Source: an uncultured Acidobacteriota bacterium (GTDB taxonomy: Bacteria > Acidobacteriota > Thermoanaerobaculia > UBA5066 > Gp7-AA6). From it: 64,000 nucleotides of DNA. Within the stretch, counting starts at the first letter, position 1. The number at the start of each line of letters is the position of its first letter. The stretch covers positions 963,975-1,027,974 of the forward strand of contig CAVXOX010000008.1 in NCBI GenBank assembly GCA_963763535.1, in the 5' to 3' direction. Shown one piece after another: positions 2,794 to 64,000 of this stretch. Both the position numbers and the translations under genes were made by a program. A model generated the notes under the pieces. It did not search any database. It was not told the origin of the DNA and saw only the letters and a list, made by a program, of their open reading frames with translations.

Positions 2794-2800
2794 GGGGACG

Positions 2801-16377: not shown

Positions 16378-16433
16378 GACGTCTCCTCTGAAATCGATCG
16401 CAGGAAGGTAGCGCCCGGGTGGCGCCGAAGTCA

Positions 16434-47249: not shown

Positions 47250-47626
47250 CGTATCGCGTCACGGTCTCGGCGAGGTTCGAGGCCGCGCACAACCTCATCG
47301 ACTACGAGGGCGGACCCGAGCCGCTCCACGGCCACTCATACCTCGTCGAGGCGGTCCTCGAGGCGCCGAAGCTCCAGCGCTACGACGTCGCCGTCGACTT
47401 CGTGCCGGCGAAGAAGGCGCTCGAGGCCGTCGCGAAAGAGCTCGACTACGGCTACGTCAACGAGCATCCCGCCTTCCGCGGCCGCAACACCTCCGCCGAG
47501 AATCTCGCGCTCTTCTTCGCCGAGCGCCTCGAGGCGTCGGGCGCGCTCGGGTGGGCGCGCGTCGCGGAAGTGACCGTCTGGGAAGGGCCGCAGAACCGCG
47601 CGACCTACCGGCCCCCGCAAACGTAA
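47246..47626 (+). CDS. 6-pyruvoyl-tetrahydropterin synthase / QueD-family protein
   Basis: ATG overlaps the rSAM stop (ATGA). QueD/PTPS motifs (RFEAAHNL, PLHGHSY, C-terminal E..V.E). 126 aa. Confidence 0.75.
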   Translation: MTYRVTVSARFEAAHNLIDYEGGPEPLHGHSYLVEAVLEAPKLQRYDVAVDFVPAKKALEAVAKELDYGYVNEHPAFRGRNTSAENLALFFAERLEASGALGWARVAEVTVWEGPQNRATYRPPQT

Positions 47627-47638: not shown

Positions 47639-50600
47639 GTGCCGCTCTCGAAGCTCGCCGCCGCCCTCGGGTTCGCAACCGCGGCAGGGATCGCGGCCGC
47701 CGAGCAGCTGCCGCTCCGGATCTATACCGCGGCCGACGGCCTCCCGAGCGACCGCGTCTCGGTCGTGCGTTTCGACTCCCAGGGATTCCTCTGGCTCGGT
47801 ACGGAGGACGGCCTCTCCCGGTTCGACGGCTATGACTTCCGCAACTTCGACGCCTCCGACGGCATCGCGCCCGCGCCGATCCGGTCGTTTCTCGAGACCC
47901 GATCGGGTATCTACTGGGTCGGCACGAGCCACGGTCTCGTCCGGTTCGACGCGTTGCGCGAGAGCCGCGCCGGCCGGTCGAACGCGCGCCTCGATCATCT
48001 GCCGGGCGGTGGAATGCACGACGGCGTGCTCGCCCTCCTCGAGGACCGCGCGGGGGCGATCTGGATCGGGACCGAGGACGGCCTCTTCCGTCTCGCCGAC
48101 GAAGGAGAGCCGGCGCGCTTCGAGCCGGTCCCGTTCGCGACGAGCGCGTCGAACATTCCCGTGAACGCCCTCCTCGAGGACCCGGACGGAACGCTCTGGG
48201 TCGGCTCCGAGCTGGGGCTCTTTCGCCGGGCTCCCGGCGGAGCCTTCGCGCGCGTGGCCGACGGCCGCGGCCGCCCGGTTTCGGTGCAGTGCCTGCGACG
48301 CGATCGCGGCGGCGTGCTGTGGATGGGCACGCGGCTGGAGGGCCTGCTCGGGCTGCGCGAGGCTGGCCACGGAGTCGTGCCCTCATGGACTTCGTACACG
48401 GTCGAGACCGGGCTCGCCGGGCAGCACGTCACCGCGGTCGTCGAAACCTCCGACGGAACCCTCTGGGCGAGCTGCTACGGTGGGTTGAGCGAGATCCCTC
48501 CCGACCGAAGCTCGATTCGGCGGTACACGCTCGCCGAGGGCCTGTCGAGCGTCGGCGTGTCCTCGCTCGCGGAGGATCGCGACGGCGATCTCTGGATCGG
48601 CAGCGACAGCGCCGGCCTGATGCGGTTCGCGCGGAACGGCTTTCGGGCTTTCGACGAGAGAGACGGCCTGAAGACGCGCCGCGTCGCCTCGCTCTTCGAG
48701 AGTCGAGATGGCGCGGTGTGCGCGTTCACGCGCGGCCAGAACACGGAGGACATCGTCCACGGCGACGGCTTCCTCGCCTGCTTCGACGGCCGGCGCTTCG
48801 AGACGAAGTCCCTGCGCGTTCCGCCGGGCACGCTCTACGGATGGGGCTGGTCGCAGTTCGCGCTGCAGGACGAGAACGACGAGTGGTGGGTGCCGGCCGT
48901 CCCGGGAGTCTTCCGGTTTCCCGGCGTTCCATTCTCGCGCCTCGGCGACACGCCGCCTCGCCGCCTCTATGGACCCCGCGACGGCCTCGAAGGAAACGCG
49001 ATCCTGCGTCTCTACGAGGACCGGCGCGGCGATCTCTGGATGGCCGTCTCCGGCGACCGCGGGAATCTCGCCCGCTGGGACCGGCGCGCCGACGCGATCC
49101 GGATGTATGGGAAGGCCGACGGGTTGCCCGATCGCGAGCCGATGGCGTTCGTCGAAGACCGGAATGGCGGCCTCTGGATCGGTCTGCGCGGCGGAGGGCT
49201 CGTGCGCTATGCGGACGAAAGGTTCGCGCTCGCCGACGCCGGCACCGGGATTCCCGAGGGCTCGATCCGCGCGCTCGCCCTCGGCGGCGATGGGAGCGTC
49301 TGGCTCGCGAGCGCCCGCGGGGGCATCGGCCGGATCGAGGACGCCGGTCGCTGGCCGCCGCGCTTCGCGGTTTACGGAGTCTCCGAGGGTCTCTCGAGCG
49401 CGAACGCTTCCTCGATCACACTCGACGCCGGAGGCCGCGTCTACGTCGGGACAGAGCGCGGACTCGAACGGCTCGATCCCGCGACCGGCAACGTCCAGCG
49501 CTTCACCGCCGAGGACGGCCTTCCTCGGGGCGTGATCGAGACGTCTCTCCGCGACCGCCGTGGCGATCTCTGGTTCGGATCCGTCGAGGGGCTCTCGCGC
49601 CTCGAGCCGCGAATCGAGCCGCGGCGCGCGCCGCCCTCGGCGCGCATCGCGCGCGTGTTCGTCAATGGCGTCCGCCAGCCGTTGCCGGAGAACGGGGCGT
49701 CCACCGTCCCCCTCGCGCCGGCCCGTCCCGGCCCCACGTCGCTCCAGGTCGACTACGTCGCCGTCGACTTCGCTCCCGGTGGACGTCCGCGCTACCAGTA
49801 CCGCGTCGACGGTCTCGACGCCGACTGGAGCCCTCCCACGGATCAGAGGTCCGTCGTCTACGCGCGACTTCCCGCCGGCGCCTTCCGGTTCCGGGTCCGC
49901 GCGGTGGGGAACGACGGCTCCATTGGCGACTCCGCCGCGTCGGTGAGCCTGCGTGTCGCGCCGCCGCTCTGGCGCCGCCCGGAGGTCGCGGCCGCCGGCG
50001 CGCTCCTCGCCGCCGCCGCCGCCTACGCGCTCCATCGCCTGCGGCTCGCCCGCGCGCTCGAGCTGGAGCGAGTGCGCAGCCGGGTCGCGCGCGACCTGCA
50101 CGACGACGTCGGCGCCGGGCTTTCCGAGATCGCGATCCTCAGCGAGGTCGCGCGCGCGCAAGGCGGCTCGCGGGAGCTGCCGGTCCTCTCCGAAATCGGA
50201 GATCGTGCCCGCGACCTCGTCGACGCGATGACCGACATCGTGTGGTCGACCGACCCTCGGAAGGACGACGTCGCGAGTCTCGTCCAGCGCATCCGCCGGT
50301 TCGCCGCGAACGCGCTCGAGAGCCGCGGAATTGTCTGGACGCTCGAGGTGCCCGAAGACTTCGAGGCGCGCCGGCTGGATCCGGAGCGGCGGCGCCAGAT
50401 CTTTCTCGTCGTGAAGGAGGCGCTCGCGAACGTCGCGCGGCACTCCCGTTGCGCCCGCGCCGCGGTCCGGATCCTTTCCGCGCCGGACGAGCTGGCGGTC
50501 GAGGTCGAAGACGACGGCGTGGGGCTTCGCGGAGCGGCGGGCGCCGACACCGGACACGGCCTCGCCAACATGCGGGCCCGCGCCGCGGCGGTCGGCGGCG

Positions 50601-50677
50601 AGCTGCGCCTCGGCGCCGGAGAGAGGTCCGGCACCATCGTGCGCCTGCGCGTGCCGCTCCCGCGCGGCCGTGTCTGA
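47639..50677 (+). CDS. Sensor histidine kinase with periplasmic two-component-regulator beta-propeller (Reg_prop/Y_Y_Y) domain and HisKA_3 + HATPase_c
   Basis: Signal peptide. Multiple D/EGxLW(I/V)GT propeller blades. One TM (AAAGALLAAAAAYALH). H-box LHDDVGAGLS and an ATPase C-terminus. Confidence 0.8.
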   Translation: MPLSKLAAALGFATAAGIAAAEQLPLRIYTAADGLPSDRVSVVRFDSQGFLWLGTEDGLSRFDGYDFRNFDASDGIAPAPIRSFLETRSGIYWVGTSHGLVRFDALRESRAGRSNARLDHLPGGGMHDGVLALLEDRAGAIWIGTEDGLFRLADEGEPARFEPVPFATSASNIPVNALLEDPDGTLWVGSELGLFRRAPGGAFARVADGRGRPVSVQCLRRDRGGVLWMGTRLEGLLGLREAGHGVVPSWTSYTVETGLAGQHVTAVVETSDGTLWASCYGGLSEIPPDRSSIRRYTLAEGLSSVGVSSLAEDRDGDLWIGSDSAGLMRFARNGFRAFDERDGLKTRRVASLFESRDGAVCAFTRGQNTEDIVHGDGFLACFDGRRFETKSLRVPPGTLYGWGWSQFALQDENDEWWVPAVPGVFRFPGVPFSRLGDTPPRRLYGPRDGLEGNAILRLYEDRRGDLWMAVSGDRGNLARWDRRADAIRMYGKADGLPDREPMAFVEDRNGGLWIGLRGGGLVRYADERFALADAGTGIPEGSIRALALGGDGSVWLASARGGIGRIEDAGRWPPRFAVYGVSEGLSSANASSITLDAGGRVYVGTERGLERLDPATGNVQRFTAEDGLPRGVIETSLRDRRGDLWFGSVEGLSRLEPRIEPRRAPPSARIARVFVNGVRQPLPENGASTVPLAPARPGPTSLQVDYVAVDFAPGGRPRYQYRVDGLDADWSPPTDQRSVVYARLPAGAFRFRVRAVGNDGSIGDSAASVSLRVAPPLWRRPEVAAAGALLAAAAAYALHRLRLARALELERVRSRVARDLHDDVGAGLSEIAILSEVARAQGGSRELPVLSEIGDRARDLVDAMTDIVWSTDPRKDDVASLVQRIRRFAANALESRGIVWTLEVPEDFEARRLDPERRRQIFLVVKEALANVARHSRCARAAVRILSAPDELAVEVEDDGVGLRGAAGADTGHGLANMRARAAAVGGELRLGAGERSGTIVRLRVPLPRGRV

Positions 50678-50736
50678 GCCCGCCGCATGACGATGCGGTT
50701 GCGCGCCCCGCCGCTCCGCGGGAGGATCGGTCGAGA

Positions 50737-51384
50737 ATGCCGGCCGACACCATCCGCGTCGCCCTCGTCGAGGACAAGCGGCTGATCCGGGAAGGTCTCG
50801 GCGCGATCCTCGGCCGGACCGAGGGCCTGCGCTGCGTCGGGGTCTATCCATCGGTCGAGGAGGCGCTGCCGGCGCTCGAGGACGAGCCCTGCGACGTCCT
50901 GCTCCTCGACGTGCAGCTGCCCGGAATGTCGGGCGTCGCCGGCGTGGCGGTCGTTCGGGAGCGCTTCCCCGACACCCGCGTGCTGATGCTGACGGTTTAC
51001 GAGGACGAGGAAAAGATCTTCGAGTCGATCCGCAACGGCGCCTGCGGCTACCTGCTCAAGAAGACACCGCCGGCGCAGATCGCGGAGGCCGTGCGCCAGG
51101 CCCGCGACGGCGGCTCGCCCCTCTCGCCGGAGGTCGCCCGCCTCGTCGTGGAGCACTTCCGGAGCCTTCCCGCGAGACCCCGGACGCAGACTCCGCTGAC
51201 GGGACAGGAGACGGCCCTGCTCAAGAGGCTCGCCGAGGGGCACAGCTACCAGGGGGCGGCCGCCGCGCTCGACATCTCGATCAACACGGTCCGCGACCAC
51301 GTGCGCAGCATCTACGAGAAGCTCCACGTTCATTCCAAGTCGGAGGCGGTCGGCAAAGCCCTGCGAACGGGACTCATCGACTAG
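50737..51384 (+). CDS. NarL/FixJ-family response regulator (REC + LuxR HTH)
   Basis: ATG at 50737 (frame-checked). Receiver (LLLDVQLPG), LuxR HTH ([35 protein letters not shown]). Confidence 0.85.
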
Positions 51385-51472
51385 GCCTTCGCCCCTCACC
51401 GCATCTTCATGCTATTGGCCCGGCGCCCTCGCCGGCCGCAGAGTGCGCCCATCGACGACCGATGGAGAAAGC

Positions 51473-53683
51473 ATGAAGATCACCGTCCGCGGATTCGCCC
51501 TGCTCCTGTCCGGCCTCCTGATCGCCCTCGCCGCGCCAGGCGCCACGTTTACCGTCACCAACACGAACGACAGCGGACCGGGCTCGCTTCGTCAGGCGAT
51601 CCTCGACGCCAACGCCAGCCCTGGCGCGGACACGATCGCGTTCGCGATCCCCGGCGCCGACCCCGGCTGCGACGGCACGGGCGTGTGCACGATCGCGCCG
51701 ACGTCTCAGCTCCACTCCATCGACGAGGCGGCAATGCTCGACGGGTACACGCAGCCGGGCGCCTCGCTCAACACGGCGACGTTCGGATCGAACGCGGTGC
51801 TCAAGATCGTGGTTTCGGGAGTGAACATCCCGGGTGCGGGCGGCATCCTGCCCGGCGCGGCGGGCGTGACGGTTCGGGGCGTCGTCATCAATGGCGGCTT
51901 TCACTCGGCCATCGACATCCTGACGGAGGGCGACGTCCACGTCGAAGGCTGCTTCATCGGGACCGACGCCTCGGGGTCGAGCGCCGTTCCGAACACCGTC
52001 GGCGTCGACTTCTTCCTGAAGGGCGTCGGCAGCGTCATCGGCGGCCCGGCCCCCGGCCAGCGCAACGTCATCGGCTCCGGCCAGCACGGCGTCAGCGGCA
52101 GCAATGTGGCGGGCGCGACGATCCAGAACAACCTGATCGGCACGGACAAGAGCGGCGTCGTCACGCTGCCCCAGGCCGTCGGCGGCGACGGCATCGCGAT
52201 CGGCGCCTGCAATGCCGGAGATCCGCTCGATTCGATTCTCGACAACGTCGTCGCCGGCTTCTCAGGCTATGCGATCCACAACAGCTGCCTGCCCGCGACC
52301 ATTCAGGGCAACCACATCGGCATCGACGCGACGGAAACCGTCGTCTTTGCTCCCGTGACCACGTACGGCATCGCTCCCGGCGAGGGCTCGATCGTCGGCG
52401 GCGTCAACCCCGGCGAGGGCAACGTCATCACCGGGATGCGGGGCGTCGGCATTCTCGGCGACAACTTCGCCGGTGGCACGATCCGGGGCAATTCGATCTG
52501 GGGAAACGGCGGGAACCCGAATTACTCGGGCCTCGGCATCGACATGCTCGGCGACGGGCCGACGAAGAACGACCCGGGAGACGCCGACATGATCCAGAAC
52601 TTTCCCGTCCTGAAGACGGTCACGAACGGCGCGACGACGCACGTCACGGCCGCCCTGCACTCGGCGGCATCGACCCTCTACGACGTCGACTTCTACGCGA
52701 ACCCCGCCTGCTCGAACTTTCCGCGCGAGTACGACGAGGGCAAGACGTTCCTCGGGTCGACCCAGGTGACGACGAATGGCTCGGGCACGGCATCCATCGA
52801 CGTCACACTCCCGGTCGCGACCGAAGACGGCTCCCGCCTCACGATGGTTGCCACGAACCACGCGACGGGCCGCTCCTCCGAGTTCTCGCAGCGCCTCCCC
52901 TTCCTCGTCCTGCCGTCGTCGGGACCCGCGGGGACCGGAATCCCGATGACGATCTACGGCACCGACTTCGCCGCCGGCGCAACGGTGGCGATCGCCGGCG
53001 CCCCCGCCACGGCCGTCACGGTCGTGAACGACGGCCAGATCAGCGCCACCTCGCCGATTCTGACTCCCGGCACCGTCAACGATCTCGTCGTGGCCAACAC
53101 GGATGGCACGACGGGAACGCTCGTCAAGGGCTGGGTCGCCGACTTCCTCGACGTCGACGGAGGCAACCAGTTCTACCAGTTCGTCACGACGCTCGTCTCG
53201 AACGCGATCACCGTCGGCGTCGGGAGCGGCGCGTACGGAATCGGCCAGCCGACGCTGCGTCAGCAGATGGCGGTGTTCCTGCTCAAGGCCGAGCACGGCC
53301 TCTGCTATGCGCCGCCGCCCTGCTCCGGCGTTTTCCCGGACGTTCCGTGCTCGTCGAACTTCGCGCCCTGGATCGAGCAGATGTCCGCCGAGGGGATCAC
53401 CGGCGGCTGCGGCGGCGGCAGTTTCTGTCCGAGTAGCCCCGTCCGGCGCGACCAGATGGCCGTCTTCCTGCTGAAGACCGAGCACGGCTCGTCGTACTCG
53501 CCGCCCGCCTGCGCCGGCGTCTTCCCGGACGTGCCGTGCTCCTCCCCCTTCGCACCGTGGATCGAGCAGCTCTTCAACGAGCAGGTCACGGGCGGCTGCG
53601 GCGGCGGGAACTACTGCCCGGCGAACGCCAATACCCGCGGCCAGATGGCGGTGTTCATGGTCAAGACCTTCCATCTCCAGTAG
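51473..53683 (+). CDS. Surface-protein paralog 1 (736 aa): signal peptide, CSLREA-like N-motif, right-handed beta-helix repeats, IPT/TIG, three Cys-rich SLH-like repeats; intact
   Basis: ATG at 51473 with a [46 protein letters not shown] repeats. [60 protein letters not shown]. Three repeats (...[12 protein letters not shown]..., ...[12 protein letters not shown]...) ending KTFHLQ*. Confidence 0.8.
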
Positions 53684-54068
53684 CGCTTCACATGCCGTCC
53701 TTTCATGGGGCCTTCCTGGAGAAGGGAGGCCGCGCTTCTTGTCGGCGCCGACGGCGCGAGGGCGCCGGGGTTCGTCCCCCCGGAGAGGAAAGAGCGCCCG
53801 GATCGGCGATAGACTCCGCGGCACGCTGAGGAAGGAGGATCGCGCCATGCGCTTTCGTCTCGGCCTCGCCGGTGCGCCGCTCACCGCCGTTCTGCTACGC
53901 CGGTTCACCCTCGTCGACCGAGTCACTCGCAGATCTTGTCGATCACCGGCAACTGCGTGGCGTCAACGATGTCCGCTCGATCCGAACTCGGCATGCGAAT
54001 GCGATTTTCATCGCTGAAATGTTTCGGCTGCCATAGCGGCGGAGGTCCACCCTCCGGAGGGAGGTCTG

Positions 54069-56346
54069 ATGCGACGCTTCCATCTCGTTCTCACGGCAAT
54101 CCTCGCCACGGTCACGGCCTCGGCCACCACGTTCACCGTCACCAACACCAGCGACAGCGGCGCCGGCTCGCTCCGGCAGGCGATCACCGACGCCAACGCG
54201 AACGCGGGCGCCGACACGGTCGACTTCAACATCCCCGGCTCCGATCCGAACTGCGAGCGGGACCGGCGTCTGCACGATCACGCCGACGGCGTCCGAGCCT
54301 GCCTCTGATCACCGATGCCCTGACGATCGACGGCTACACGCAGCCGGGAGCCGCGGTCAATACGTCCGCAACGGGCACGAACGCGGTGCTCAAGATCGTG
54401 CTCTCCGGCGCCAACGCGCCATCGGGGTCCTCGGGTCTGGGCCTCGGCGCGAACTCGATCACGATCCGCGGGCTGGTGATCGGGAGGGGATTCCTCGACG
54501 GAATCGCGGCCGGCTTAGTCAGCGACCTTAAGGTCATCGGCTGCTTCATCGGCGTCGACACGACGGGCAACACGGCGTTTCCTAACATCCGCAACGGGAT
54601 CTATTTCGCGTCACGGACGGCGTCACGATCGGCGGCACGGCACCCGCCGACCGCAACCTGATTTCCGGGAACGGGAACATCGGCTTGGCCGTCGATCTCG
54701 GCGAGCACGACGGGGCCCAACGTCATCCTGGGAAACCTCGTCGGGACCAACGCCGCCGGAACCGCCGCGATCCCCAACTCATCGGACGGGGTGGTCGTGA
54801 GCACCAACGGGCTCGGCGGCTCATTCACGATCGGCGGGTCCGCGGCCGGCGCCGGCAACGTCATCTCCGGCAACGGCGCGCGCGGCCTCTTCGTCGGCGG
54901 CTTCGGCAGCGGGACCGCCTTCACCGTGCAGGGCAACCTCGTCGGCACCGACGCGACCGGGACGCTGCCGGTTCCGAACGGCAGCTACGGCGCTTCGCGC
55001 CGTCTCCAACGGCGCCGCCATCGGAGGCATCGGGGCCGGCGAAGGCAACGTGGTCGCATACAACACCGGCGGCGGCGTGGTGGACGACGCGGGAGAGACC
55101 AACGTCTCGATTCGGGGCAACTCGATTCATGACAATGGATTCGGTTTCCTCGGGCACGGCGTCGGCATCGATCTGAGCGTCAACATCGGCGGCGACGGAG
55201 TCACGCCGAACGACCCGGGCGACGGCGACACGGGCCCGAACAACTACCAGAACTTCCCGATCGTCTCCTCGGCGGCGGCGCTCGCCCCGTCGAGCGGCAC
55301 GCATGTGACGGGCGTCCTGCACTCGACGCCCTCGACCACCTTCGATCTCGACTTCTACGCGAACGACGCGTGCATTCCACACCCCCACGACTTCCTCCAG
55401 GGGCGGACCTACCTCGGGTCCGGGCCAGGTCATGACGGACGGCTCGGGAACCGGGTCGTTCTCCATCGACGTGGCCGGGACGATCCAGCCGGGCGAGCGC
55501 GTCAGCGCGACCGCCACGGACCCGACCGGCAACACGTCCGAGTTCTCGCAGAGGCTTCCCTTCTCCATCAACCCGGCCTCGGGAGACCCGGCGGGCGGCG
55601 CGGCGGTGACCATCTCCGGCACCGACTTCCTCGCCGGCGCGACGGTCACGATCGGCGGCGTCGCCGCGACGAACGTCAACGTCGGGAGCTTCAACAGCCT
55701 GACGGCGAATGCGCCCGCGCTCGCGCCGGGCTCGCTGAACGACGTCGTGGTGACGGACTCGGACGGCGCGAGCGGCACGCTCGAGGCCGGCTACGTGGCG
55801 GACTTCCTCGACGTCCCGCCGTCCCAGCAGTTCTACAGCTACGTGACGACGCTCGTGACGAGCAAGATCACGGTGGGCGTCGGCGGCGGCAACTACGGGG
55901 TGGGCCAGGACACCCTGCGCCAGCAGATGGCGGTCTTTCTGCTGAAGGCCGAGCACGGACTGTGCTACACGCCACCGCCGTGCACGGCCCAGCTCTTCGG
56001 CGACGTGCCCTGCTCCTCGGGCTTCGCGCCCTGGATCAACGAGCTCGTCGCCGAGGGAATCACCGGAGGGTGCGGCGGCGGCAACTATTGTCCGACGAAC
56101 CCGGTCCTGCGCCAGCAGATGGCCGTCTTCCTGCTGAAGGCGGAGCACGGCTCCTCCTACGTCCCGCCCGGATGCGCCGGGGTCTTTCTCGACGTGCCCT
56201 GCCCCTCGCAATTCGCCGACTGGATCGAGCGGCTCGCCGCGGAGGCCATCACCGGAGGTTGTGGCGGAGGCAACTACTGTCCGAGCTCGACGGCCAATCG
56301 CGGCCAGATGGCGACGTTCGTCGTCAAGACCTTCAACCTTCAGTGA
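54069..56346 (+). pseudogene. Surface-protein paralog 2, same architecture, broken by about six frameshifts
   Basis: ORFs 54069..54308, 53936..54661, 54791..55132, 55050..(55450) and 55432..56346 hold successive conserved segments in different frames (for example NIPGSDPNC|[14 protein letters not shown]|TDGVTIGG, GSYGAS|...GVAISNGAA, YLGSG|QVMTDGSG). Confidence 0.55.
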
Positions 56347-56375
56347 CTCGTCAACCCCGGAGAAGGAGATCGATC

Positions 56376-58685
56376 ATGAAACCCCTGGTCCGGATCTCGA
56401 TCAAAATCGCTTTCCTCGCCGCCTGTCTCGCCGCCGCAGTGCCGCTCATCGCCGCCACCTACACCGTCACAAATACCGGCGACAGCGGCGCGGGATCGTT
56501 GCGCGACGCCATCAACCAGTCCAACGCGAGCGTCGGGGTCACCGACACGATCGCTTTCAACGTCACAGGCACCGGGTGTGCCGGCTCTCCGGCCGTCTGC
56601 ACGATCAAGCCGCTCGCTCCCCTGCCCAACATCACCGACGCCGTGATCGTCGATGGCTACACACAGCCCGGCTCGAACCCGAACACGCTCGCGGTCGGCG
56701 ACAACGCCGTGCTCCTGATCGAGCTCGACGGCAGCCAGATCGGCACCTTCGCCTACGGGTTCCTGATCTTCACGGACAACACCACGATCCAGGGACTCGT
56801 GATCAACCGGTTCTCGAACCCCGGGATCGGCATCGACACGACCGGCGGCGGCGGCGCGGGCGGCCACGTCATCCGGGGCAACTTCATCGGGACGAATCCC
56901 GCGGGAACCGCGGCCGCGCCCAACTCGGTATATGGCATCTATGTCCGTTCCCCGAACAACCGCATCGGCGGCCCGAACCCCGCGGATCGCAACGTCATCG
57001 TCGGCGGCTCGGGCGCCTTCGCGACCTGCATCCGGTTCGAGGGGGATTTCGGAGGCGCGACGGATGGAGACGTCGTCCAGGGTAACTACCTCGGAACCGA
57101 CAAGACCGGAACCTTGCCGCTCGGGGGCGGCGACGGCGTCTACATCGGTCCGGGCTCGGGCATCACGGTCGGAGGGGCCGGCGCCGGGGAAGGCAACCTC
57201 ATCTCCGGAAACACCGGCTACGGCATCGACATGACGTCGCCCGGATGCGTGGGCACGATCTCCGGAAACGTCATCCAGGGGAATCTTATCGGCACCGACG
57301 CCTCCGGGACTTCTCCGCTCCCGAACGGCCTCGGCGGCATTCTTCTGAGCTGCACAACCAGCGGTAATCAAATCGGCGGCACGGCCGCGGGCGCCGGCAA
57401 CTTGATCGCCAACAACGGAGTCTCCCCCGGCCAGGGCGGGGGCATCTTCCTCGACTCCACCGCAGGCACCGGAAACGCGATTCGAGCCAACCGGATCTTC
57501 TCGAACAACATCCTCGGTATCGGCCTGAAGGTCAGCTACGCCCTTCCGAACGACCCCGGCGATCCGGACTCCGGTCCGAACAACCTTCAGAACTTTCCGA
57601 TCGTCTCGTCGGCGGCCCCGGGATCCGGAACCACACACATCACCGGCGTGCTCCACAGCACGGCGAACACGACCTACGACCTCGACTTCTTCTCGAATCC
57701 CGCCTGCATCCCGTTCCCCCATGAATATCTCGAGGGCACCGCCTACCTCGGCTCTGGCATGACGACGACGGACGGCGGCGGGACCGGGACATTCGACGTC
57801 GTCGTCCCCGTGCAGATCGGGGCCGGCGAGCACGTGACGGCGACCGCGACCGATCCGGCAGGCAACACCTCGGAATTCTCGCAACGACTGCCGTTCACCA
57901 TCTTCCCGGCGTCGGGCCCGTCGGCGGGAGGCACCTTCGTCTCCATCGGCGGCACGGATTTCGAGGCCGGCGCGACCGTTACGATCGGCGGCGTCGCCGC
58001 GACCAACGTCGTCGTCTCGAACTCGATGAACCTGTCGGCCCAGACGCCGGCCCTCGCCTCGGGCTCCCTCAACGACGTCACGGTCAGCAACACCGACGGA
58101 TCGAGCGGCACGCTGCTCATGGGGTTCGTCGGCGACTTCCTGGACGTGCCGGAGTCCTATCAGTTCTATTCCTTCGTGACCAAGCTCGTCTCGAACGCGA
58201 TCACGGTGGGCTGCGGCGGCGGAGATTACTGCCCCGCGGCCAACGTGACACGCGCGCAGATGGCTGTGTTTCTGCTCAAGGCCAAGTACGGGCTCTGCTA
58301 TGCGCCGCCGCCCGCGAGCGGCACCGTCTTCAACGACGTGCCCGCCAGCGCGTTCGCCGCGGCCTGGATCGAGGCCTTGGCGGCTCTCGGCGTCACCGGA
58401 GGGTGCGGCGGCGGCAACTACTGCCCCAACGGATCCGTCACGCGTGCGCAAATGGCCGTCTTCCTCCTGAAGACGTTCCTGGGAACCACCTACGTTCCGC
58501 CCACCTGCACCGGCGTCTTCGGCGACGTGGTCTGCCCGGGAACGTTCACCGACTGGATCGAGGACCTCTACGCCCGCTCCATCACGGGCGGCTGCCAGGC
58601 GAGTCCGCTTATGTACTGCCCCTCGAACCCGAACACGCGCGGCCAGATGGCGGTCTTCATCACGAAGACCTTCAACCTGCAATGA
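56376..58685 (+). CDS. Surface-protein paralog 3 (769 aa); intact
   Basis: ATG at 56376 with an AAGGAG RBS. ATYTVTNTGDSGAGSLRDAINQSNA. NDPGDPDSGPNNLQNFPIVSSA. HITGVLHSTANTTYDLDFFSNPAC. IPT, then three repeats ending KTFNLQ*. Confidence 0.8.
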   Translation: MKPLVRISIKIAFLAACLAAAVPLIAATYTVTNTGDSGAGSLRDAINQSNASVGVTDTIAFNVTGTGCAGSPAVCTIKPLAPLPNITDAVIVDGYTQPGSNPNTLAVGDNAVLLIELDGSQIGTFAYGFLIFTDNTTIQGLVINRFSNPGIGIDTTGGGGAGGHVIRGNFIGTNPAGTAAAPNSVYGIYVRSPNNRIGGPNPADRNVIVGGSGAFATCIRFEGDFGGATDGDVVQGNYLGTDKTGTLPLGGGDGVYIGPGSGITVGGAGAGEGNLISGNTGYGIDMTSPGCVGTISGNVIQGNLIGTDASGTSPLPNGLGGILLSCTTSGNQIGGTAAGAGNLIANNGVSPGQGGGIFLDSTAGTGNAIRANRIFSNNILGIGLKVSYALPNDPGDPDSGPNNLQNFPIVSSAAPGSGTTHITGVLHSTANTTYDLDFFSNPACIPFPHEYLEGTAYLGSGMTTTDGGGTGTFDVVVPVQIGAGEHVTATATDPAGNTSEFSQRLPFTIFPASGPSAGGTFVSIGGTDFEAGATVTIGGVAATNVVVSNSMNLSAQTPALASGSLNDVTVSNTDGSSGTLLMGFVGDFLDVPESYQFYSFVTKLVSNAITVGCGGGDYCPAANVTRAQMAVFLLKAKYGLCYAPPPASGTVFNDVPASAFAAAWIEALAALGVTGGCGGGNYCPNGSVTRAQMAVFLLKTFLGTTYVPPTCTGVFGDVVCPGTFTDWIEDLYARSITGGCQASPLMYCPSNPNTRGQMAVFITKTFNLQ

Positions 58686-58852
58686 CGGGAAGGCCACACG
58701 GGGAAGCGGATGGCGGGTTGATCACGAGGACCTTCCACCTCCAATAGCGTTCCGCTGGGCGCGCCTCCGTTCGGGGGCGCGCCTTCTCTGCCCTATTCCT
58801 CCCGCGCCGCCGATGCCGCGGGATAGACTTCGCTTTCCTAAAAGGAGAATCA

Positions 58853-61303
58853 ATGCGACTCCGCCTCGCGCTCGCCGGAGCCCTGCTCGCGCTTCCCGTC
58901 GCCGGCGCGACGTTTACCGTCACCAATGTCAACGACTCCGGCGCGGGCTCGCTGCGCCAGGCGATCCTGGACGCCAACGCCAATCCGGGCGCGGACACGA
59001 TCGCCTTCAGCATCGCGGGAAGCGGGGTGCAAACGATCGCGCCGCTGACCCCCCTCGACACGATCACCGACGCGGTCACGATCGACGGGTACTCGCAGCC
59101 GGGCGCATCGGCGAACACGAATCCGCCGGAGATGGGCACGAACGCGGTTCTCCGGATCGAGCTCGACGGAACGCACTCGGGCGGCACGGTGGACGCGGGC
59201 GCGTTGAAGACGCAGGGGCCCGCGAACTCGAACGTCACTATCCGCGGTCTCGTCATCAACCGTGCGCCGTCGAGCGGCATCGTCCTCTTCGGCCAGGGAA
59301 GCAACTTCGTCGTGGAGGGCTGTTTCATCGGGACCGACCCGACCGGGCTGACCTCGATCGACCTCGACAACACGCTGGGCATCCTGATCGACGCGAGCGC
59401 CACGAACGTCCGGATCGGCGGCACGACCCCCGCGGCGCGAAACGTCATCTCGGGCAACTCCAGCGCCCAGATCGCGACCGGCTGCGAGCTCAGCGCGGGC
59501 GGTTCGGGCCACCTGATCCAGGGCAACTTCATCGGCCCCGACGCCACGGGCGCCGCGGCGCCGCCGCACAACTACGCCGGGCAGGGCGGCGGCGTCGGCT
59601 TCTGCTACGGGACATCGACCGTGACGCTCGGCGGAGCCACCGCGGCCGAACGAAACGTCATCGCCGGCAATCCGGGCATCGCCGTCAACCTGGGAAGCAG
59701 CTTCAGCAACGACGTCCACGACATCACCGTCCGCGGCAACTACATCGGGACGGACGTGACCGGCGCGGCCCCGCTCGGCAACGGCGAGCATCGGCATCCG
59801 GGTCAACCAGCCCAACAACAGCATCTTCGAACAACGTCATCGCGTCGAGCGGCGCCGAGGGCATCCAGGCCGAGGGGGGCACGACCCTCGTGCAGGGCAA
59901 TTTCATCGGCACCGATGCCACCGGAATGCTTCCGCTCGGCAACGCCAGTGCGGGCATTCACGTCATCAGTTCCGGCGCGCAGATCGGCGGCACAGGCGCG
60001 AACGAGCCGAACGTGATCGCCTTCAACGGAACGTCGACTTTCTCCGGCCACGGCGTGTGGGTCGAGAACGGCACCGGCTCGGCCATCCGCGCCAATTCCA
60101 TCCACGACAACCTCGCCCTCGGGATCGCGTTTCAAACCGGCGGCAGCGCGACGCCGAACGATCCGGGGGACGGCGACATCGGCCCCAACGGCCTCCAGAA
60201 CTTCCCCGTCCTGTCGACGCTGACGCCGGCGTTTCCCGAAACTCCGGAGGCCGGACTGCACATCCAGGGCACCCTGCACTCGACGCCTTCGACGACGTTC
60301 GACCTGGACTTCTTTTCCAACCCGGCGTGCGTGAGGTTTCCCAAGGACTTCCTGGAGGGCGCGAGGTACCTGGGGTCGGGTGTCGTCACGACCGACGGCG
60401 CCGGCACGGGCATCGTCGACGTGACGGTGCCGATCGGGATCGCGGCGGGCGAGCACGTCAGCGCGACGGCCACCAGCCCCTCCGGCAGCACGTCGGAGTT
60501 TTCTCAGCGGCTCCCCTTCTCCCTCAACACCGGTTCCGGCGACGCGGCCGGCGGCGGGGCGATCACGGTCTTCGGCACAGACTTCGAGGATGGGGCGACC
60601 GTCACGATCGGGGGGACTCCCGCGACGGGGATCGTCGTCGTCTCGACAACATCCATCACCGCGGTGACGCCCGCGCTCGCGGCGGGCAGCGCCAACGACC
60701 TCGTCGTGACGAACACCGACGCCACGACCGGAACGCTCGTCAAGGGCTGGGTCGCGGACTTCCTCGATGTTCCGGGCGGACAGCAGTTCCACCAGTTCGT
60801 CACGACGCTCGTTTCCAGCGGGATCACCGCGGGAGTCGGCGGCGGCCTCTACGGCGTCGGCGACGACACGCTGCGCCAGCAGATGGCGGTGTTCCTGCTC
60901 AAGGCCGCCCACGGCCTCTGCTACACGCCTCCGCCGTGCACGACGCAGGTCTTCACGGACGTGCCCTGCTCCTCCAACTTCGCGCCCTGGATCAACGAGC
61001 TCGTCACCGAAGGCATCACCGGCGGTTGCGGCGCGGGCGTCTTCTGTCCCCAGAACCCCGTGCGCCGCGATCAGATGGCGGTGTTCCTGCTGAAGGCCGA
61101 GCATGGGCTGGGATACACGCCGCCCGCCTGCGTCGGCACGTTTCCCGGACGTGCCGTGCTCGTCGAACTTCGCGCCGTGGATCGAGCAGCTCGCGGCGGA
61201 GAACATCACCGGCGGCTGCGGCGGCGGCAACTACTGCCCCGGCCTCTCCGCCAACCGCGGCCAGATGGCCACGTTCGTGGTCAAGACGTTCCAGCTGCAG
61301 TGA
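58853..61303 (+). CDS. Surface-protein paralog 4; two or three apparent frameshifts (about 59790-59830 and about 61145)
   Basis: N-terminal 320 aa in ORF 58853..60016, the middle in ORF 58813..61485, and the C-terminal repeat in ORF 61103..61303. The second shift is an extra C in tttcccggacgtg compared with paralog 1 (ttcccggacgtg in frame). Confidence 0.6.
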
Positions 61304-61481
61304 CGAAGCCGACCCGCTCGCCGCATCTGGGGTTCGTCGAGAACAACCCCGGTTCGCGCCAGCGTTGGTTCGACGGAGGGCCTGCCTCGCTGGTCGGACC
61401 GTCGTCGAGACGTTCCGCGAGCTTGACCATGAAGGTCGGGCCAACTCGGGTAGACTCCGGGCCCGTCCCAAGGAGGCTCGC

Positions 61482-63707
61482 GTGAGAATCCGTGTCGCCT
61501 CGATCCTCGCGGCCCTTTTCTCGGCTGCCACCGCCTTCGCGAGCACGTTCACCGTCACGACGATGGCCGACTCCGGCGCCGGCTCGCTCCGCCAGGCGAT
61601 CCTCGATGCCAACGCCAACCCGGGCGCCGACACGATCGCGTTCGCCATCCCGGGCTCCGGCGTGCACACGATCGTGCTCACGACGTGGCTTCCGAACGCC
61701 ACCGACCCCGTGACGGTCGACGGCTACACGCAGCCGGGCTCGTCGCCGAACACGCTGCCACTCTCGCAGGGAACCAATGCCGTCCTGAACGTGGAGATCA
61801 ACGGAGCCGCCGTCACGCTCGCGCCGTGCTGGTCGTACCAGGCCAACGGCGGACTTATTCGGGGCGTCGTCATCAACCGCTGCCCCGATGGCGCGATCTA
61901 CGTCACCGGCTCGCTGGACGTCACCGGGAGTTTCCTCGGCATGTCGCCGGCGGGAATGCCGATCAACGGGTCGACGCAGCAATTTGGAGTCTTCGCCCTC
62001 GGCACGCTCGGCAACGAGGCTCCGATCACGGTCAACGTCGGCGGCGCCGACCCCGCGGACCGCAACCTCATTTCCGGCAACGGCGCCGGCGTTTACATGC
62101 AGTACAACGTCGCCGGCGCGGTCAAGGGCAATCTCATCGGGACCGACAAGACCGTCTCCTACACGATCACCAACGGCAACGGGATCATCTGCACCTCGCC
62201 GAAGGGCGTCCAGATCGGAGGCCCGGGAGCGAATGAGGGCAACGTGATCGGCGGCAGCATCGCCGAGGGCTTCGGCGGCCGGTTTTCCGTCTTCCAGGGC
62301 AACTTCGTCGGCACCAATCCCACCGAGACGGCGAATCTCGGCAATCTCGGCACGGGGGTCGCGATCGATTCGAACGTCGTCGTTCCTCCCACCGGAGTCC
62401 TCGGCGGCATGGGCCCCGGAGAAGGCAACGTCATCGCGCACAACGGCGGAGGCGGCATCTACGGCGACCCGGGCGGATTCATGATGACGAGCTCGCTCGG
62501 CCAGGTCTCGGCGCGCGGCAACCGCTTCTACGACAACCGGCCCGTGGCCATCGCGCTCGGCTTCGATCCGCCGCACGCGGCCGATCCCGGCGACGGCGAC
62601 ACCGGACCGAACGGGAGCCAGAACGCGCCCGTGATCACGGGCATCGACTACGGTCCGCCGACCGTCGCCCATTTCCTCCTGAACAGCACGCCCTCGACGA
62701 CGTTCGACGTCGACGTCTACGCCGACACGAGCTGCGTCTCGTTCCCGGTCGTGTCTTCCCAGGGCGAACAGCTCGTGGGCTCGGTCCAGGCGACGACCGA
62801 TGCGTCGGGAGTCGTCACGATCGACTTTTCGCTCCCGTCGCCGCTCGCGCCGGGCCAGAGTGTCTCGGCGATCGCGACGGATCCCGCGGGCAACACGTCG
62901 GAGTTCGCGCAGACGATCCTGCTCAAGACGATTCCGCGGTCGGGTCCCGCCGCCGGCGGCGGCTCGGTGTCTCTCTACGGACAGCTCCTCGAAGCCGGCG
63001 CCACGGTCGCCGTCGACGGCATCGCGCCGTCGAACGTGGTGGTGACGCCGCCCTACATGATCACGGCGAACATGCCGGCGTTCGACCCGGGAACCGCCCA
63101 CGACGTCGTCGTGACGAATCCCGGCGGAGTCTCGGGCACGCTTCGCAACGGCTACATCGCGGACTTTCTCGACGTGCCGCCGGCGAACCAGTTCCACGAC
63201 GACGTCGTCAAGCTGGTGGCGAGCCAGGTGACGGCCGGCGTCGGAGGCGGGTTCTATGGAATCGGCGATTCCGTCAAGCGGCAGTCGATGGCGGTCTTCG
63301 TTCTCAAGGCCGAGCACGGCATCTGCTACACGCCGCCGCCGTGCACGCCGGGCGTCTTCGCCGACGTGCCGTGCCCGTCGCCGTTCGCCGACTGGATCGA
63401 GGCCATGTTCGCGGAAGGAATCACGGGCGGGTGCGGCGGAGGCAACTTCTGTCCGCTGGATGCGGTGCGGCGCGATCAGATGGCGCCGTTTCTGCTCAAG
63501 GCGGTGCACGGACCGGCTTACGCTCCGCCGCCTTGTTCCGGGTACTTCACGGACGTCTCCTGCCCCTCCCTCTTCGCCGACTGGATCGAGCAGCTGTTCC
63601 TGGAGAACGTGACGTCGGGCTGCGGCACCCTCCTCTATTGTCCCTCGAACCCGAACACCAGGGGACAAATGGCGACGTTCCTGGTCAAGGCGCTTCGCCT
63701 TCCGTAG
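61482..63707 (+). CDS. Surface-protein paralog 5 (741 aa); intact but the most divergent
   Basis: GTG at 61482 with an [66 protein letters not shown]. Repeats with [13 protein letters not shown], and a degenerate last one NVTSGCGTLLYCP. Confidence 0.8.
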   Translation: MRIRVASILAALFSAATAFASTFTVTTMADSGAGSLRQAILDANANPGADTIAFAIPGSGVHTIVLTTWLPNATDPVTVDGYTQPGSSPNTLPLSQGTNAVLNVEINGAAVTLAPCWSYQANGGLIRGVVINRCPDGAIYVTGSLDVTGSFLGMSPAGMPINGSTQQFGVFALGTLGNEAPITVNVGGADPADRNLISGNGAGVYMQYNVAGAVKGNLIGTDKTVSYTITNGNGIICTSPKGVQIGGPGANEGNVIGGSIAEGFGGRFSVFQGNFVGTNPTETANLGNLGTGVAIDSNVVVPPTGVLGGMGPGEGNVIAHNGGGGIYGDPGGFMMTSSLGQVSARGNRFYDNRPVAIALGFDPPHAADPGDGDTGPNGSQNAPVITGIDYGPPTVAHFLLNSTPSTTFDVDVYADTSCVSFPVVSSQGEQLVGSVQATTDASGVVTIDFSLPSPLAPGQSVSAIATDPAGNTSEFAQTILLKTIPRSGPAAGGGSVSLYGQLLEAGATVAVDGIAPSNVVVTPPYMITANMPAFDPGTAHDVVVTNPGGVSGTLRNGYIADFLDVPPANQFHDDVVKLVASQVTAGVGGGFYGIGDSVKRQSMAVFVLKAEHGICYTPPPCTPGVFADVPCPSPFADWIEAMFAEGITGGCGGGNFCPLDAVRRDQMAPFLLKAVHGPAYAPPPCSGYFTDVSCPSLFADWIEQLFLENVTSGCGTLLYCPSNPNTRGQMATFLVKALRLP

Positions 63708-63797
63708 GACCCGAAGCCTTCAGCCGCGCGGGCCCGTGCTCGCCGCCCTCACCTCGGCCAGTCGCCGAGCCGGCGCGCGGCTCGAGCCGAGGGTCTA

Positions 63798-64000
63798 GCC
63801 GGAGAGCGCGGCGAGTTCGCCCTTCGCCTTCCGCGCGCGAGGATCCGCCTCGCCGTGGTGGGCGCGCAGTCGCTCGAGCGCCTCGGTCAGCTCCCGCCGG
63901 GCGCGACTCGCGTCGCCCTGGGCCCGGGCGATCTCGGCGCTCGTGACGAGCATCTCGTCCACGCGAGGATGCTCCGCGTCGATCTTTTTCTGCAGGGCGA
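63798..64000 (-). CDS. C-terminal fragment of a hypothetical protein; gene continues beyond the window
   Basis: Minus-strand reading ...ALQKKIDAEHPRVDEMLVTSAEIARAQGDASRARRELTEALERLRAHHGEADPRARKAKGELAALSG*. Confidence 0.3.

Follow-up and report, generated by a model that had tools for sequence, protein, structure and literature searches.

SLH-anchored proteins are known from Gram-positive bacteria, including B. anthracis Sap, Paenibacillus alvei SpaA and Paenibacillus ChiW. The family described here is likewise SLH-anchored, but its module is C-terminal, contains nine conserved cysteines, with GGCGGGxxCP in repeats 2 and 3 and CYxPPxC linkers, has xRxQ for the TRAE motif, and belongs to a diderm host in which it is possibly periplasmic. 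For the rest of the protein, the closest described relative is Acinetobacter QuiC (8WM1; a 3-dehydroshikimate dehydratase annotated as “NosD domain-containing protein”), a periplasmic beta-helix enzyme. A fold search shows the helix and Ig cassette of our family to be distantly homologous to this QuiC family (identity 17-23%). However, QuiC has no TIG or SLH domain and is encoded by a single gene in quinate/protocatechuate clusters, whereas our proteins have both domains and no qui/pca context.

The array lies next to a sensor kinase, and here the comparison is with the Bacteroides hybrid sensors (BT4663, 4A2L/4A2M), whose periplasmic double beta-propeller and Y_Y_Y domain are homologous to those of our kinase. 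The Bacteroides sensors adjoin polysaccharide utilisation loci with SusC/SusD; our kinase adjoins genes whose exported products have folds like those of carbohydrate enzymes, in a locus without SusC/SusD genes. The former have a fused receiver and AraC domain, whereas the latter is a non-hybrid HisKA_3 kinase of the DesK/NarX type, and its NarL-type regulator is a protein of its own.

The original prediction had placed the proteins in the CSLREA family (TIGR04214, CSLREA_Nterm), whose members carry a short motif just behind the signal peptide and then parallel beta-helix repeats. Their GSLRQAI motif does resemble CSLREAI, but Gly replaces the name-giving Cys and the HMM gives no match, even when the N-termini alone are searched at E<=10. 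In addition, a GSLRQAI-type motif is found internally in a giant multi-module protein (locus L072). It is therefore a helix cap rather than a signal at the N-terminus. The family assignment is not supported by the HMM. A literature search on this beta-helix/TIG/SLH family found no paper; the family is new in literature terms, yet assembled from known parts, and it is large. On balance, we favor reading the region as a chromosomal cluster of five old paralogs and one degraded copy, encoding lineage-specific exported envelope proteins that would act by the mechanism proposed below.

Composition and history of the array

The window, a 64,000-nucleotide stretch, is part of the chromosome of a soil Acidobacteria (Thermoanaerobaculia, Acidobacteriota). 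The gene order on the plus strand is degraded g0, histidine kinase, NarL-type regulator and then g1 to g5, where the array ends; beyond it is the tail of a convergent gene on the minus strand. The copies and relics are as follows.

42597..44601, plus strand: g0, sixth copy, with a signal peptide, no GSLRQAI cap and at least seven frame changes
51473..53683, plus strand: g1, intact, 736 aa (ORF; Pfam TIG and SLH; AF2 model)
53810..53870, plus strand: between g1 and g2, remnant of the start of a lost copy (MRFRLGLAGA...), with TAGACTCCG 29 nt ahead
54069..56346, plus strand: g2, approximately 759 aa corrected (three-frame reading and stitching; Pfam TIG and SLH on the corrected protein)
56376..58685, plus strand: g3, intact, 769 aa, starting 29 nt past g2
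58721..58747, plus strand: relic of the last nine codons (ITRTFHLQ and stop) directly past the g3 stop
58853..61303, plus strand: g4, approximately 812 aa corrected by removing three single-base insertions (59785, 59830, 61140)
61482..63707, plus strand: g5, intact 741-aa gene with a GTG start, diverging most from the other copies

The five co-oriented paralogs predicted downstream of the kinase and regulator are all found, as ORFs and by tblastn (E-values of 1E-141 to 1E-154 between copies). Their predicted length of about 740 aa is recovered once frames are corrected (736-814 aa); as sequenced, g2 and g4 are broken and three of the five (g1, g3, g5) are intact. The heavily frameshifted g0, upstream, had been overlooked. 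It is matched by g1, g3 and g5 in frames 1, 3, 2 and 1 across 43258-44598 (tblastn; three-frame reading), and in the close relative L001 its ortholog is unbroken and encodes 889 aa.

Duplication by the assembly process, which had been named as one finding that would overturn the prediction, is excluded: g1 to g5 are merely 44-59% identical to one another, and g1, g2, g4 and g5 each have their own ortholog in an independent assembly (91-98% protein and 93-97.5% DNA identity). The g1 ortholog (P0001) is 98% identical; those of g2 (754 aa, 91% identical) and g4 (812 aa, 92% identical) are intact in L001, which has no counterpart of g3 at the same position.

Are the broken copies pseudogenes? The g2 gene reads as seven frame segments, with six frame changes near 54257, 54293, 54609, 54704, 54991 and 55425. 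If g0, g2 and g4 were true pseudogenes, the array would be decaying by birth-and-death evolution. It is in keeping with this that the breaks are concentrated in these three copies, whereas g1, g3 and g5, like the kinase and radical-SAM genes, are clean and approximately 13 kb of adjoining genes are free of breaks, and that the divergent patches, too, are in g2 and g4. However, the housekeeping gene thrC is broken just as much, and three frame corrections restore a full threonine synthase (556 bits). In L001 the g2 and g4 orthologs are intact and other genes are broken instead, the kinase having 37 indels. Every frame segment reads as conserved protein with zero in-frame stops, and both assemblies have Flye-style contig names, typical for long-read metagenomes. 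We therefore consider decay unlikely; the g2 and g4 breaks are most likely indel errors of long-read metagenome assembly.

The paralogs (44-59% identical) are far more diverged from one another than are orthologs across genomes (60-98%), so the duplications are old. The serial duplication originally proposed is to this extent not supported, and the claim that identity falls toward the last copy survives in part: g5 has diverged the most, with g3 close behind, and there is no clean gradient. Judging from sequence comparison, the old duplications were followed by gain, loss and recombination of copies. Between two strains, the array genes are 94-100% identical except in patches of g2 and g4 (71-88%), and one copy is present in one strain and absent from the other, the junction carrying a relic 3′ end. 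The relic past g3 is homologous (approximately 89% identical) to the 3′ end of the L001 ortholog of g2, and it marks recombination inside the SLH-coding 3′ ends.

Domain architecture and possible roles

Each family protein consists, in order, of a Sec-type signal peptide, an alpha-helix-capped right-handed beta-helix, an Ig-like domain, an IPT/TIG domain and an SLH trimer. The domains of g1 (AF2 model, pLDDT 89.3) and one further protein with the same anchor are as follows.

51545..52507, plus strand: g1 residues 25-345, N-terminal cap and right-handed parallel beta-helix
52508..52897, plus strand: g1 residues 346-475, acidic NDPGDxD..QNFP linker and Ig-like sandwich (AF2)
52898..53140, plus strand: g1 residues 476-556, IPT/TIG domain (PF01833, 31.4 bits; cut-off 20.9)
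53141..53680, plus strand: g1 residues 557-736, three SLH domains forming a pseudo-trimer, nine conserved Cys
12586..16518, minus strand: unrelated exported 1310-aa M36-peptidase-like and CarboxypepD_reg protein with a C-terminal SLH triple (Pfam, NCBIfam)

The TIG and SLH domains exceed the Pfam cut-offs in g1 to g4, and in g5 solely when C-terminal pieces are scanned alone (SLH 22.3, TIG 24.0 bits), in agreement with the prediction. Foldseek matches the g1 TIG domain to the IPT domains of Ebf1, Met and plexin. The beta-helix is confirmed by the structure model and fold search, while Pfam Beta_helix falls slightly under its cut-off (24.7 versus 25.9 bits). In the region that follows, AF2 places strands at residues 379-462, with lower pLDDT at 350-380; it aligns with 8wm1 residues 390-481, and matches to the Bap C region are weak. 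The conserved blocks quoted earlier are present in a 58-sequence consensus. The 12-residue block that ends the Ig sandwich has one version in g2, g3 and the family consensus and another in g1.

Model and fold search also confirm the SLH trimer, which has the fold and conserved arginines of trimers that bind pyruvylated wall glycans, although Pfam scores are modest. The description of all three repeats as Cys-rich needs correction, as GGCGGGxxCP is confined to repeats 2 and 3 and repeat 1 lacks the Cys pair. The M36-like protein is 63% identical to the g1 C-terminus over 180 aa (tblastn), so the anchor is a shared module; the SLH triple is also attached to other N-termini in approximately 25 loci.

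Among the five copies, identity is 75% in the N-cap and 63-68% in the SLH region but 39%, with many indels, in the beta-helix, the least conserved part, whose coil number varies. This bears out the prediction that the array encodes exported envelope proteins, with an anchor that is conserved and a body that varies. We propose that, after Sec export, the SLH trimer binds non-covalently to a peptidoglycan-linked polymer and the TIG and Ig domains form a stalk. The beta-helix would then be the working surface, most likely binding or acting on a glycan or other polymer, with a specificity that may differ from paralog to paralog. Acidobacteria have two membranes, so “wall-anchored” may mean periplasmic and not surface-exposed. 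No outer-membrane export signal was seen in the family proteins, and of the “cell surface” label the exported envelope protein stands, while an SLH tether inside the periplasm is equally possible.

Could the proteins be wall-tethered enzymes, the helix being a polysaccharide lyase, hydrolase, epimerase or QuiC-like dehydratase and the array a glycan-induced set for degradation or envelope remodelling? We regard this as possible but somewhat doubtful. Identity to 8wm1 is low, the helix is the most variable part, and no qui/pca or SusC/D-type genes are nearby. Moreover, no invariant cluster of acidic or basic residues is found on the helix among 58 members, the invariant positions being a Gly/Asn ladder, so neither catalysis nor ligand can be named. 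A structural, S-layer-like coat or a set of adhesins, with paralog mosaics that vary the surface against phages, predators or changing substrates, would account for the C-terminal SLH trimer (as with S-layer proteins), the many paralogs in each genome, the inter-strain patches in g2 and g4 and the gain or loss of one copy. Yet known S-layers usually consist of one very abundant protein. The paralogs have stable orthologs across species, which is at odds with rapid switching; a switch based on inversion or repeats was looked for in vain, and the organism is diderm. This makes a coat or adhesin role improbable, and a polymer-directed beta-helix on a wall-bound stalk is the role we favor.

The two-component pair and the conserved dyad

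The regulatory genes and the short elements upstream of the array genes are as follows.

47639..50677, plus strand: sensor histidine kinase (Pfam Reg_prop 164.7 bits, Y_Y_Y, HisKA_3, HATPase_c)
50737..51384, plus strand: NarL/FixJ-type response regulator (Response_reg 76.7 bits; GerE, LuxR HTH, 43.7 bits)
51400..51415, plus strand: conserved element CGCATCTTCATGCTAT, 57 nt ahead of the g1 start, candidate promoter/operator and candidate regulator site
58824..58832, plus strand: -10-like element TAGACTTCG, 29 nt ahead of the g4 start
61451..61459, plus strand: -10-like element TAGACTCCG, 31 nt ahead of the g5 start

The kinase has a signal/TM segment, two beta-propellers of Reg_prop repeats, Y_Y_Y, a second TM, HisKA_3 and HATPase_c. 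In a PDB sequence search the periplasmic region of the kinase aligns with 4a2l, the BT4663-type sensor of Bacteroides (E-value 5.4E-54), and also with 3v9f, and the cytoplasmic region aligns with DesK. Both the predicted Y_Y_Y propeller kinase and its kinship with glycan-sensing Bacteroides sensors are thus upheld, as is the LuxR-type regulator, which is NarL-like; its best NCBIfam matches are MctR, MadR and NarL, each short of the equivalog cut-off.

The family has more than 5899 matches and occupies no fewer than 522 genomic places, all in Thermoanaerobaculia/Acidobacteriota MAGs, with many arrays per genome, nearly all of them without a two-component system. Synteny comparison finds the module of kinase, regulator, dyad and family gene in five species, at this conserved locus only. 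The dyad, which has the form GCATGnnCATGC in relatives and the 16-nt pattern CGCAT-N3-CATGCTAT, occurs once in the window and once in every locus with the pair, solely ahead of the first copy downstream of the pair, and in none of 73 other loci. The spacing to the following start codon is fixed (53-58 nt), while that to the regulator stop is variable (16-60 nt).

Is the pair connected to the array at all? It might be a chance neighbor, or serve the radical-SAM/QueD genes or distant targets. Only 12 nt separate the kinase gene from the stop of the QueD-like gene before it, and the kinase gene, abutting the radical-SAM/QueD genes, may be part of their operon. At dozens of other loci, an array of 2-8 copies has neither such a kinase nor such a regulator within 10 kb, the orthologous locus L004 has the array and lacks the pair, and g4 and g5 have promoter-like boxes of their own. 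Against this, all five species with the pair have a family gene next, and the 16-nt dyad recurs ahead of it with fixed spacing, even where that gene is a different paralog (L005, L028); and in L003 and L028 a family copy lies between the pair and the radical-SAM genes. An unconnected pair therefore seems to us somewhat less than probable. From its conservation and position, the dyad is most likely the target of the regulator, though it could be an ordinary promoter instead.

In the mechanism that we favor, the BT4663-like double propeller would sense a periplasmic ligand and the kinase would signal to the NarL-type regulator, which would act most likely at the dyad 57 nt ahead of g1. The regulon within the array would then be the first copy only; g3 is probably co-transcribed with g2, and g4 and g5 would be transcribed from their own TAGACT-type promoters. 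Of the “regulated set” originally proposed, at most g1, alone behind the conserved dyad, looks regulator-dependent. Among 76 family genes, 11 have TAGACT 29-40 nt ahead of the start (expected 0.3), and at the orthologous locus without the pair a TAGACT-like box takes the place of the dyad.

Gene content of the array and its frame breaks

The original prediction placed a histidine kinase and a LuxR-type regulator in front of five co-oriented paralogous genes of about 740 amino acids each. Raw ORF lists are crowded with spurious frames because the G+C content of the window is approximately 70%, and we mapped the genes by third-position G+C and homology. The map bears out five copies (g1 to g5) behind the kinase and regulator, all on the plus strand, from g1 at 51473 to g5 at 63707. 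Since the tail of a convergent gene comes after g5, there are exactly five downstream copies.

Genes of the array and its flanks (window coordinates, strand, identity)
41400-42620, +, thrC (threonine synthase); three frame changes, NF006050 match once stitched
42597-44601, +, g0, a degraded family copy with at least seven frame breaks
44643-47249, +, TIGR03960/TIGR03936 radical-SAM fusion (B12-binding)
47246-47626, +, QueD/PTPS-like gene, overlapping the radical-SAM gene
47639-50677, +, histidine kinase (Reg_prop, Y_Y_Y, HisKA_3, HATPase_c)
50737-51384, +, NarL-type response regulator (PF00072 and PF00196)
51473-53683, +, g1, intact
54069-56346, +, g2, in seven frame segments
56376-58685, +, g3, intact
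58853-61303, +, g4, with three single-base insertions relative to its ortholog
61482-63707, +, g5, intact
63750-64000, -, tail of a convergent gene, the Ser/Thr-kinase/TPR gene that ends the array in relatives

The radical-SAM fusion and the QueD/PTPS-like gene (44643-47626) are syntenic with thrC in all relatives (loci L002, L003, L004, and L028). The kinase starts 12 nucleotides past the stop codon of the QueD-like gene. At the other end, the boundary of the array is conserved: a convergent gene for a Ser/Thr protein kinase with TPR repeats lies there (20280-22199 in L002; 17206-20699 in L003), and its product could provide a second regulatory input. The conserved thrC/radical-SAM/QueD block appears to be the core around which the family array grew; the remainder of the window is ordinary chromosome.

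The predicted full-length paralogs are found in g1, g3, and g5, which are intact, but g2 (six frame changes) and g4 are broken. Every frame segment of the broken copies still encodes well-conserved family sequence. Directly upstream, thrC also needs three frame corrections, after which the stitched product matches NF006050 over its full length with 556.6 bits (cut-off 303); its frame changes therefore point to patchy assembly indel errors that reach housekeeping genes too. The closest relative found (L001; ENA ERZ25039551 contig_11142; 93-97% DNA identity) carries intact orthologs of g2 and g4 (754 and 812 amino acids), but its kinase contains 37 non-triplet indels and its regulator and radical-SAM gene are split. 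Both assemblies have Flye-style contig names. Taken together, the broken thrC, the intact g2 and g4 next to a broken kinase in L001, and the contig names make it quite probable that the frame breaks are long-read indel errors and not pseudogenes. Of the related MAGs, most belong to the “MFD” genomes, which we take to be Nanopore-based. The breaks concentrate in the segments most different between strains, a clustering consistent with consensus problems where strains are mixed in the population. Frame breaks of this kind in long-read MAGs can give intact paralogs the appearance of pseudogenes.

Age, extent, and remodelling of the family

Are the copies real, and are they recent? Pairwise identity among g1 to g5 is 44-59%, and g1, g2, g4, and g5 each have their own ortholog in the independent assembly of L001, which rules out assembly duplication. 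The array had been read as serial duplication with identity dropping toward the last copy. The most divergent copy is indeed g5, but g3 is nearly as divergent. Across genomes, orthologs are 60-98% identical (g1: 98, 75, 70, and 67%; g4: 92, 74, 75, and 60%; g5: 97 and 86%; g2: 91%). With orthologs so much closer to each other than paralogs are, the duplications must be older than these species, and recent serial duplication is ruled out.

The array differs in content between close relatives: in L001, g2 is directly followed by g4, and one further copy lies beyond g5. In the window, a 27-nucleotide relic after the g3 stop codon (58721-58747) corresponds to the last nine codons and stop of a family gene and is approximately 89% identical to the end of the L001 g2 ortholog, while the g1-g2 spacer holds a relic start (MRFRLGLAGA..., signal-peptide-like; 53847-53870). 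Both relics record past recombination between copies of the array. Most of g2 and g4 is 94-100% identical to L001, with divergent patches of 71-88% DNA identity in the last 480 nucleotides of g2 (55862-56346) and in the helix-coding parts of g2 (54368-54811) and g4 (59153-59750). In the g4 patch, distant species match the window at least as well as L001 does, and no donor better than the ortholog was found for the patches of either gene among the 80 fetched loci and the window. The patches suggest allelic replacement or hypervariable helix segments.

In a 90%-clustered protein collection, g1 has more than 5899 relatives at E < 1e-5; those with names are called “S-layer homology domain-containing protein” or “IPT/TIG domain-containing protein” and belong to Thermoanaerobaculia. 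Family members occur at no fewer than 522 places in species-representative genomes, all of them, among the matches listed, in Thermoanaerobaculia/Acidobacteriota MAGs. Many of the 80 loci carry 2-8 copies in a row, and MAG MFD00822.bin.1.116 has at least 16 copies across six loci. The family is large and sits in a phylum unexpected for SLH anchoring; all its parts are known domain types, and the function proposed below is inferred. A literature search on the array family, and on SLH domains or S-layers in Thermoanaerobaculia or Acidobacteria, returned nothing relevant.

A variable beta-helix on a modular SLH anchor

The array genes encode exported multi-domain proteins. Their layout is seen in an AlphaFold2 model of g1, built with 58 homologs (mean pLDDT 89.3, pTM 0.80).

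Domains of g1 in the AlphaFold2 model (residues, identity)
5-18, signal-peptide helix
39-47, cap helix, the SLRQAILDA part of the N-terminal motif
about 53-345, right-handed beta-helix
350-380, acidic linker NDPGDxDxGxNxxQNFP, of lower confidence
379-462, Ig-like sandwich with a conserved 12-residue block at its end (g1 differs from the family consensus)
477-556, TIG domain
568-733, three helix-pair SLH repeats

Three Cys-rich SLH-like repeats had been proposed. Pfam SLH (PF00395; cut-off 20.8 bits) recognizes them in g1 (33.9), g2 (50.3), g3 (54.5), and g4 (50.0), but g5 scores 15.8 bits as a whole protein and passes, with 22.3, only when its last 185 amino acids are scanned alone. Nine anchor cysteines are conserved, but the first repeat lacks the GGCGGGxxCP pair. 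In the g1 model the repeats form a pseudo-trimeric helix bundle as in Sap and SpaA, and Foldseek matches the model to 3pyw at TM 0.84. One arginine per repeat (R596, R659, R722), at the TRAE position, is invariant in 58 sequences; the conserved TRAE arginine is a ligand-binding residue in Sap and SpaA. Here this position reads LRQQ, RRDQ, and TRGQ in the three repeats, with Gln in place of Glu.

The same triple is joined to other N-terminal domains in about 25 loci. It also forms the Cys-rich C-terminus of a 1310 amino acid long exported protein of the window (12586-16518, minus strand), which further carries a CarboxypepD_reg domain and a stretch resembling rhombosortase/myxosortase-dependent M36 metallopeptidases. 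The triple is therefore a general anchor module of the lineage. An M23 peptidase gene (11643-12428, minus strand) adjoins that of the M36-like protein. Set against known SLH-anchored envelope proteins, the array family is a lineage-specific variant of that class. The PsAly alginate lyase (6kfn) was rejected as an SLH-anchored analog: it is a 33-kDa enzyme whose paper says nothing of S-layer homology.

SLH anchoring is best known from Gram-positives and a few deep-branching diderm bacteria, and Acidobacteria are diderm. Since, in addition, no outer-membrane export signal is evident in the array proteins, a periplasmic location on the wall has to be considered beside the cell surface, and the proteins may sit on the wall within the periplasm instead. 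No csaB-type gene was seen among the scanned genes of the 64-kb window.

The predicted IPT/TIG domain is confirmed by PF01833 (31.4-44.7 bits in g1 to g4 and 24.0 on an isolated g5 segment; cut-off 20.9). The parallel beta-helix is present in three dimensions, as a right-handed, pectin-lyase-type fold, but Pfam Beta_helix (PF13229; cut-off 25.9 bits) reaches at most 24.7 in g3 and 22.0 in g4 and does not match g1, g2, or g5; some family homologs have precomputed PF13229/PF05048 matches. The helix body is the most variable part, with 39% identity among the copies and many indels, compared to 75% in the cap and 63-68% in the SLH repeats. Its invariant positions in 58 members are Gly/Asn ladder residues, with no acid/base cluster, so that binding, or activities that differ between members, is more likely than a single catalytic activity shared by all.

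The N-terminal motif had given the family the name “CSLREA-like.” We find no match to TIGR04214 (CSLREA_Nterm) for g1, g3, and g5 at E ≤ 0.01, nor for N-termini of approximately 100 amino acids or a 38 amino acid peptide at E ≤ 10, in a release whose inclusion of this model is unconfirmed and with HMMER filters that remove most matches above E of approximately 0.1. CSLREA is rejected as a family label on these searches. In the literature, nothing relevant was found on CSLREA function; the name appears only for an Acinetobacter substrate of type II secretion (T2SS).

The family profile does match PDB 8wm1 (E 5.5e-14) over the whole cassette, from the cap GSLRWAIEQANANPG through the QN..P linker to the terminal Ig domain. 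This structure belongs to an Acinetobacter/Pseudomonas QuiC-type beta-helix family of approximately 486 amino acid proteins, annotated as 3-dehydroshikimate dehydratase or NosD domain-containing and including one fusion with a type I dehydroquinase (DHquinase_I); a literature search on 8WM1 found nothing relevant. Homology in sequence and fold spans the whole enzyme, but the array proteins are only 17-23% identical to it, below orthology level, and their neighbors (thrC, radical SAM, QueD, the two-component pair, the Ser/Thr kinase) offer no quinate/protocatechuate context. The passenger cassette is a distant relative of the QuiC/NosD beta-helix group. In a Pyrinomonadaceae MAG (DATHBT010000295.1; locus L072, 9701-15546), an ORF of more than 1948 amino acids contains the cap-helix-Ig cassette three times, with LamG-like and other modules between and no SLH anchor. 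Because the 8wm1 match spans the cap and this ORF repeats the cassette internally, the role of the N-terminal motif is structural: it caps a mobile beta-helix cassette and is not a sorting motif that goes with signal peptides.

A conserved kinase-regulator-dyad-gene module

The kinase and regulator were correctly recognized. The periplasmic part of the kinase consists of Reg_prop propellers and Y_Y_Y by Pfam and matches the BT4663-type sensor structure 4a2l (E 5.4e-54) and 3v9f (E 2.8e-38); the cytoplasmic part is DesK-like (HisKA_3), and HATPase_c closes the protein at residue 1008 of 1012. The regulator combines Response_reg (PF00072, 76.7 bits) with a GerE/LuxR-type HTH (PF00196, 43.7 bits), and it has no named ortholog since all NCBIfam equivalog matches fall below their cut-offs. 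The sensor is homologous to that of the Bacteroides hybrid two-component systems. However, no receiver or AraC-type domain is fused to the kinase here, and the regulator is a separate, NarL-type protein. At this locus the array is thus coupled to a propeller sensor that is related to the Bacteroides ones but is not hybrid.

tblastn places the sensor and the regulator at a single locus only, the orthologous thrC/radical-SAM/PTPS locus of five species (the window, L001, L002 (=L009), L003 (=L006), L005, and L028). They are absent from all other array-bearing loci examined and from L004, where the same locus has six or more copies. A family member is the gene directly after the regulator in all five species; in L005 and L028 it is a paralog other than g1.

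A 16-nucleotide element, CGCAT-N3-CATGCTAT, is found exactly once in each locus having the two-component pair and in none of the other 73. It includes the dyad GCATGnnCATGC, perfect in three of the five species, and ends 53-58 nucleotides ahead of the start codon that comes after a ribosome-binding site. Its distance to the regulator stop varies (16 to 60 nucleotides), and the remaining spacer is not conserved. L004, which lacks the pair, has a GATAAACTCC box in its place. A different element, (G/A)TAGACT(C/T)C, precedes the start codon by 29-40 nucleotides in 11 of 76 family genes, where 0.3 would be expected; the window has it at three sites only, ahead of the relic start (53810-53818), g4 (58824-58832), and g5 (61451-61459). 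Placed directly ahead of the ribosome-binding site, with no -35 partner recognized, this box probably serves as the -10 part of a promoter typical of the lineage. Scans of 47-64 kb for sigma-70 promoters and intrinsic terminators gave nothing exceeding shuffled expectation.

Conservation and position suggest that g1 has a regulator-associated candidate promoter/operator, that g4 and g5 have constitutive-type promoters of their own, and that g3, after a 29-nucleotide spacer, is co-transcribed with g2. The original idea of a regulated set finds no support for the array as a whole: the dyad stands in front of g1 only, g4 and g5 have the TAGACT element, and most arrays have no pair. Nor is the array a polysaccharide utilisation locus, a recent tandem amplification, or a demonstrated CSLREA protein set.

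We propose that these parts work together as follows. The proteins would be exported by Sec and tethered non-covalently to a wall polymer by the SLH trimer; TIG and Ig would form a stalk, and the helix would bind or process a polymer with a specificity differing by paralog. The sensor would detect a periplasmic, possibly glycan, ligand and the first copy would be switched on. The BT4663-like sensor, NarL-type regulator, 16-nucleotide dyad, and one target gene make a compact testable unit, offering a route to the ligand and then to the role of the beta-helix family.

A broader scenario strikes us as rather unlikely: Thermoanaerobaculia would use the Cys-rich C-terminal SLH triple as a general wall anchor for dozens of exported proteins per genome, and the beta-helix passengers would be a diversifying wall-bound repertoire for binding or catalysis, with one member under the control of a dedicated glycan-type sensor acting via the candidate operator GCATGnnCATGC. 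If this holds, the class would have to possess a wall polymer that is pyruvylated or binds SLH domains by other means, and an envelope organization thought typical of Terrabacteria would occur in a diderm class of Acidobacteria. A large expansion of C-terminal SLH anchoring specific to one class of soil Acidobacteria would raise the questions of what lies on or under the outer membrane of these abundant, uncultured bacteria and which wall polymer is made.

Several smaller observations concern neighboring genes. L002 has a DUF642 gene (225 amino acids; 12221-12898), absent from the window, inserted after its g1 ortholog and ahead of the following copy, and in L003 an ECF sigma factor comes next after the array-closing Ser/Thr kinase. 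Further signaling genes of the window encode an RskA-type anti-sigma factor (24744-25547, minus strand), a GGDEF diguanylate cyclase (35235-36461, plus strand), and a second histidine kinase, of the HisKA type (1915-2862, minus strand).
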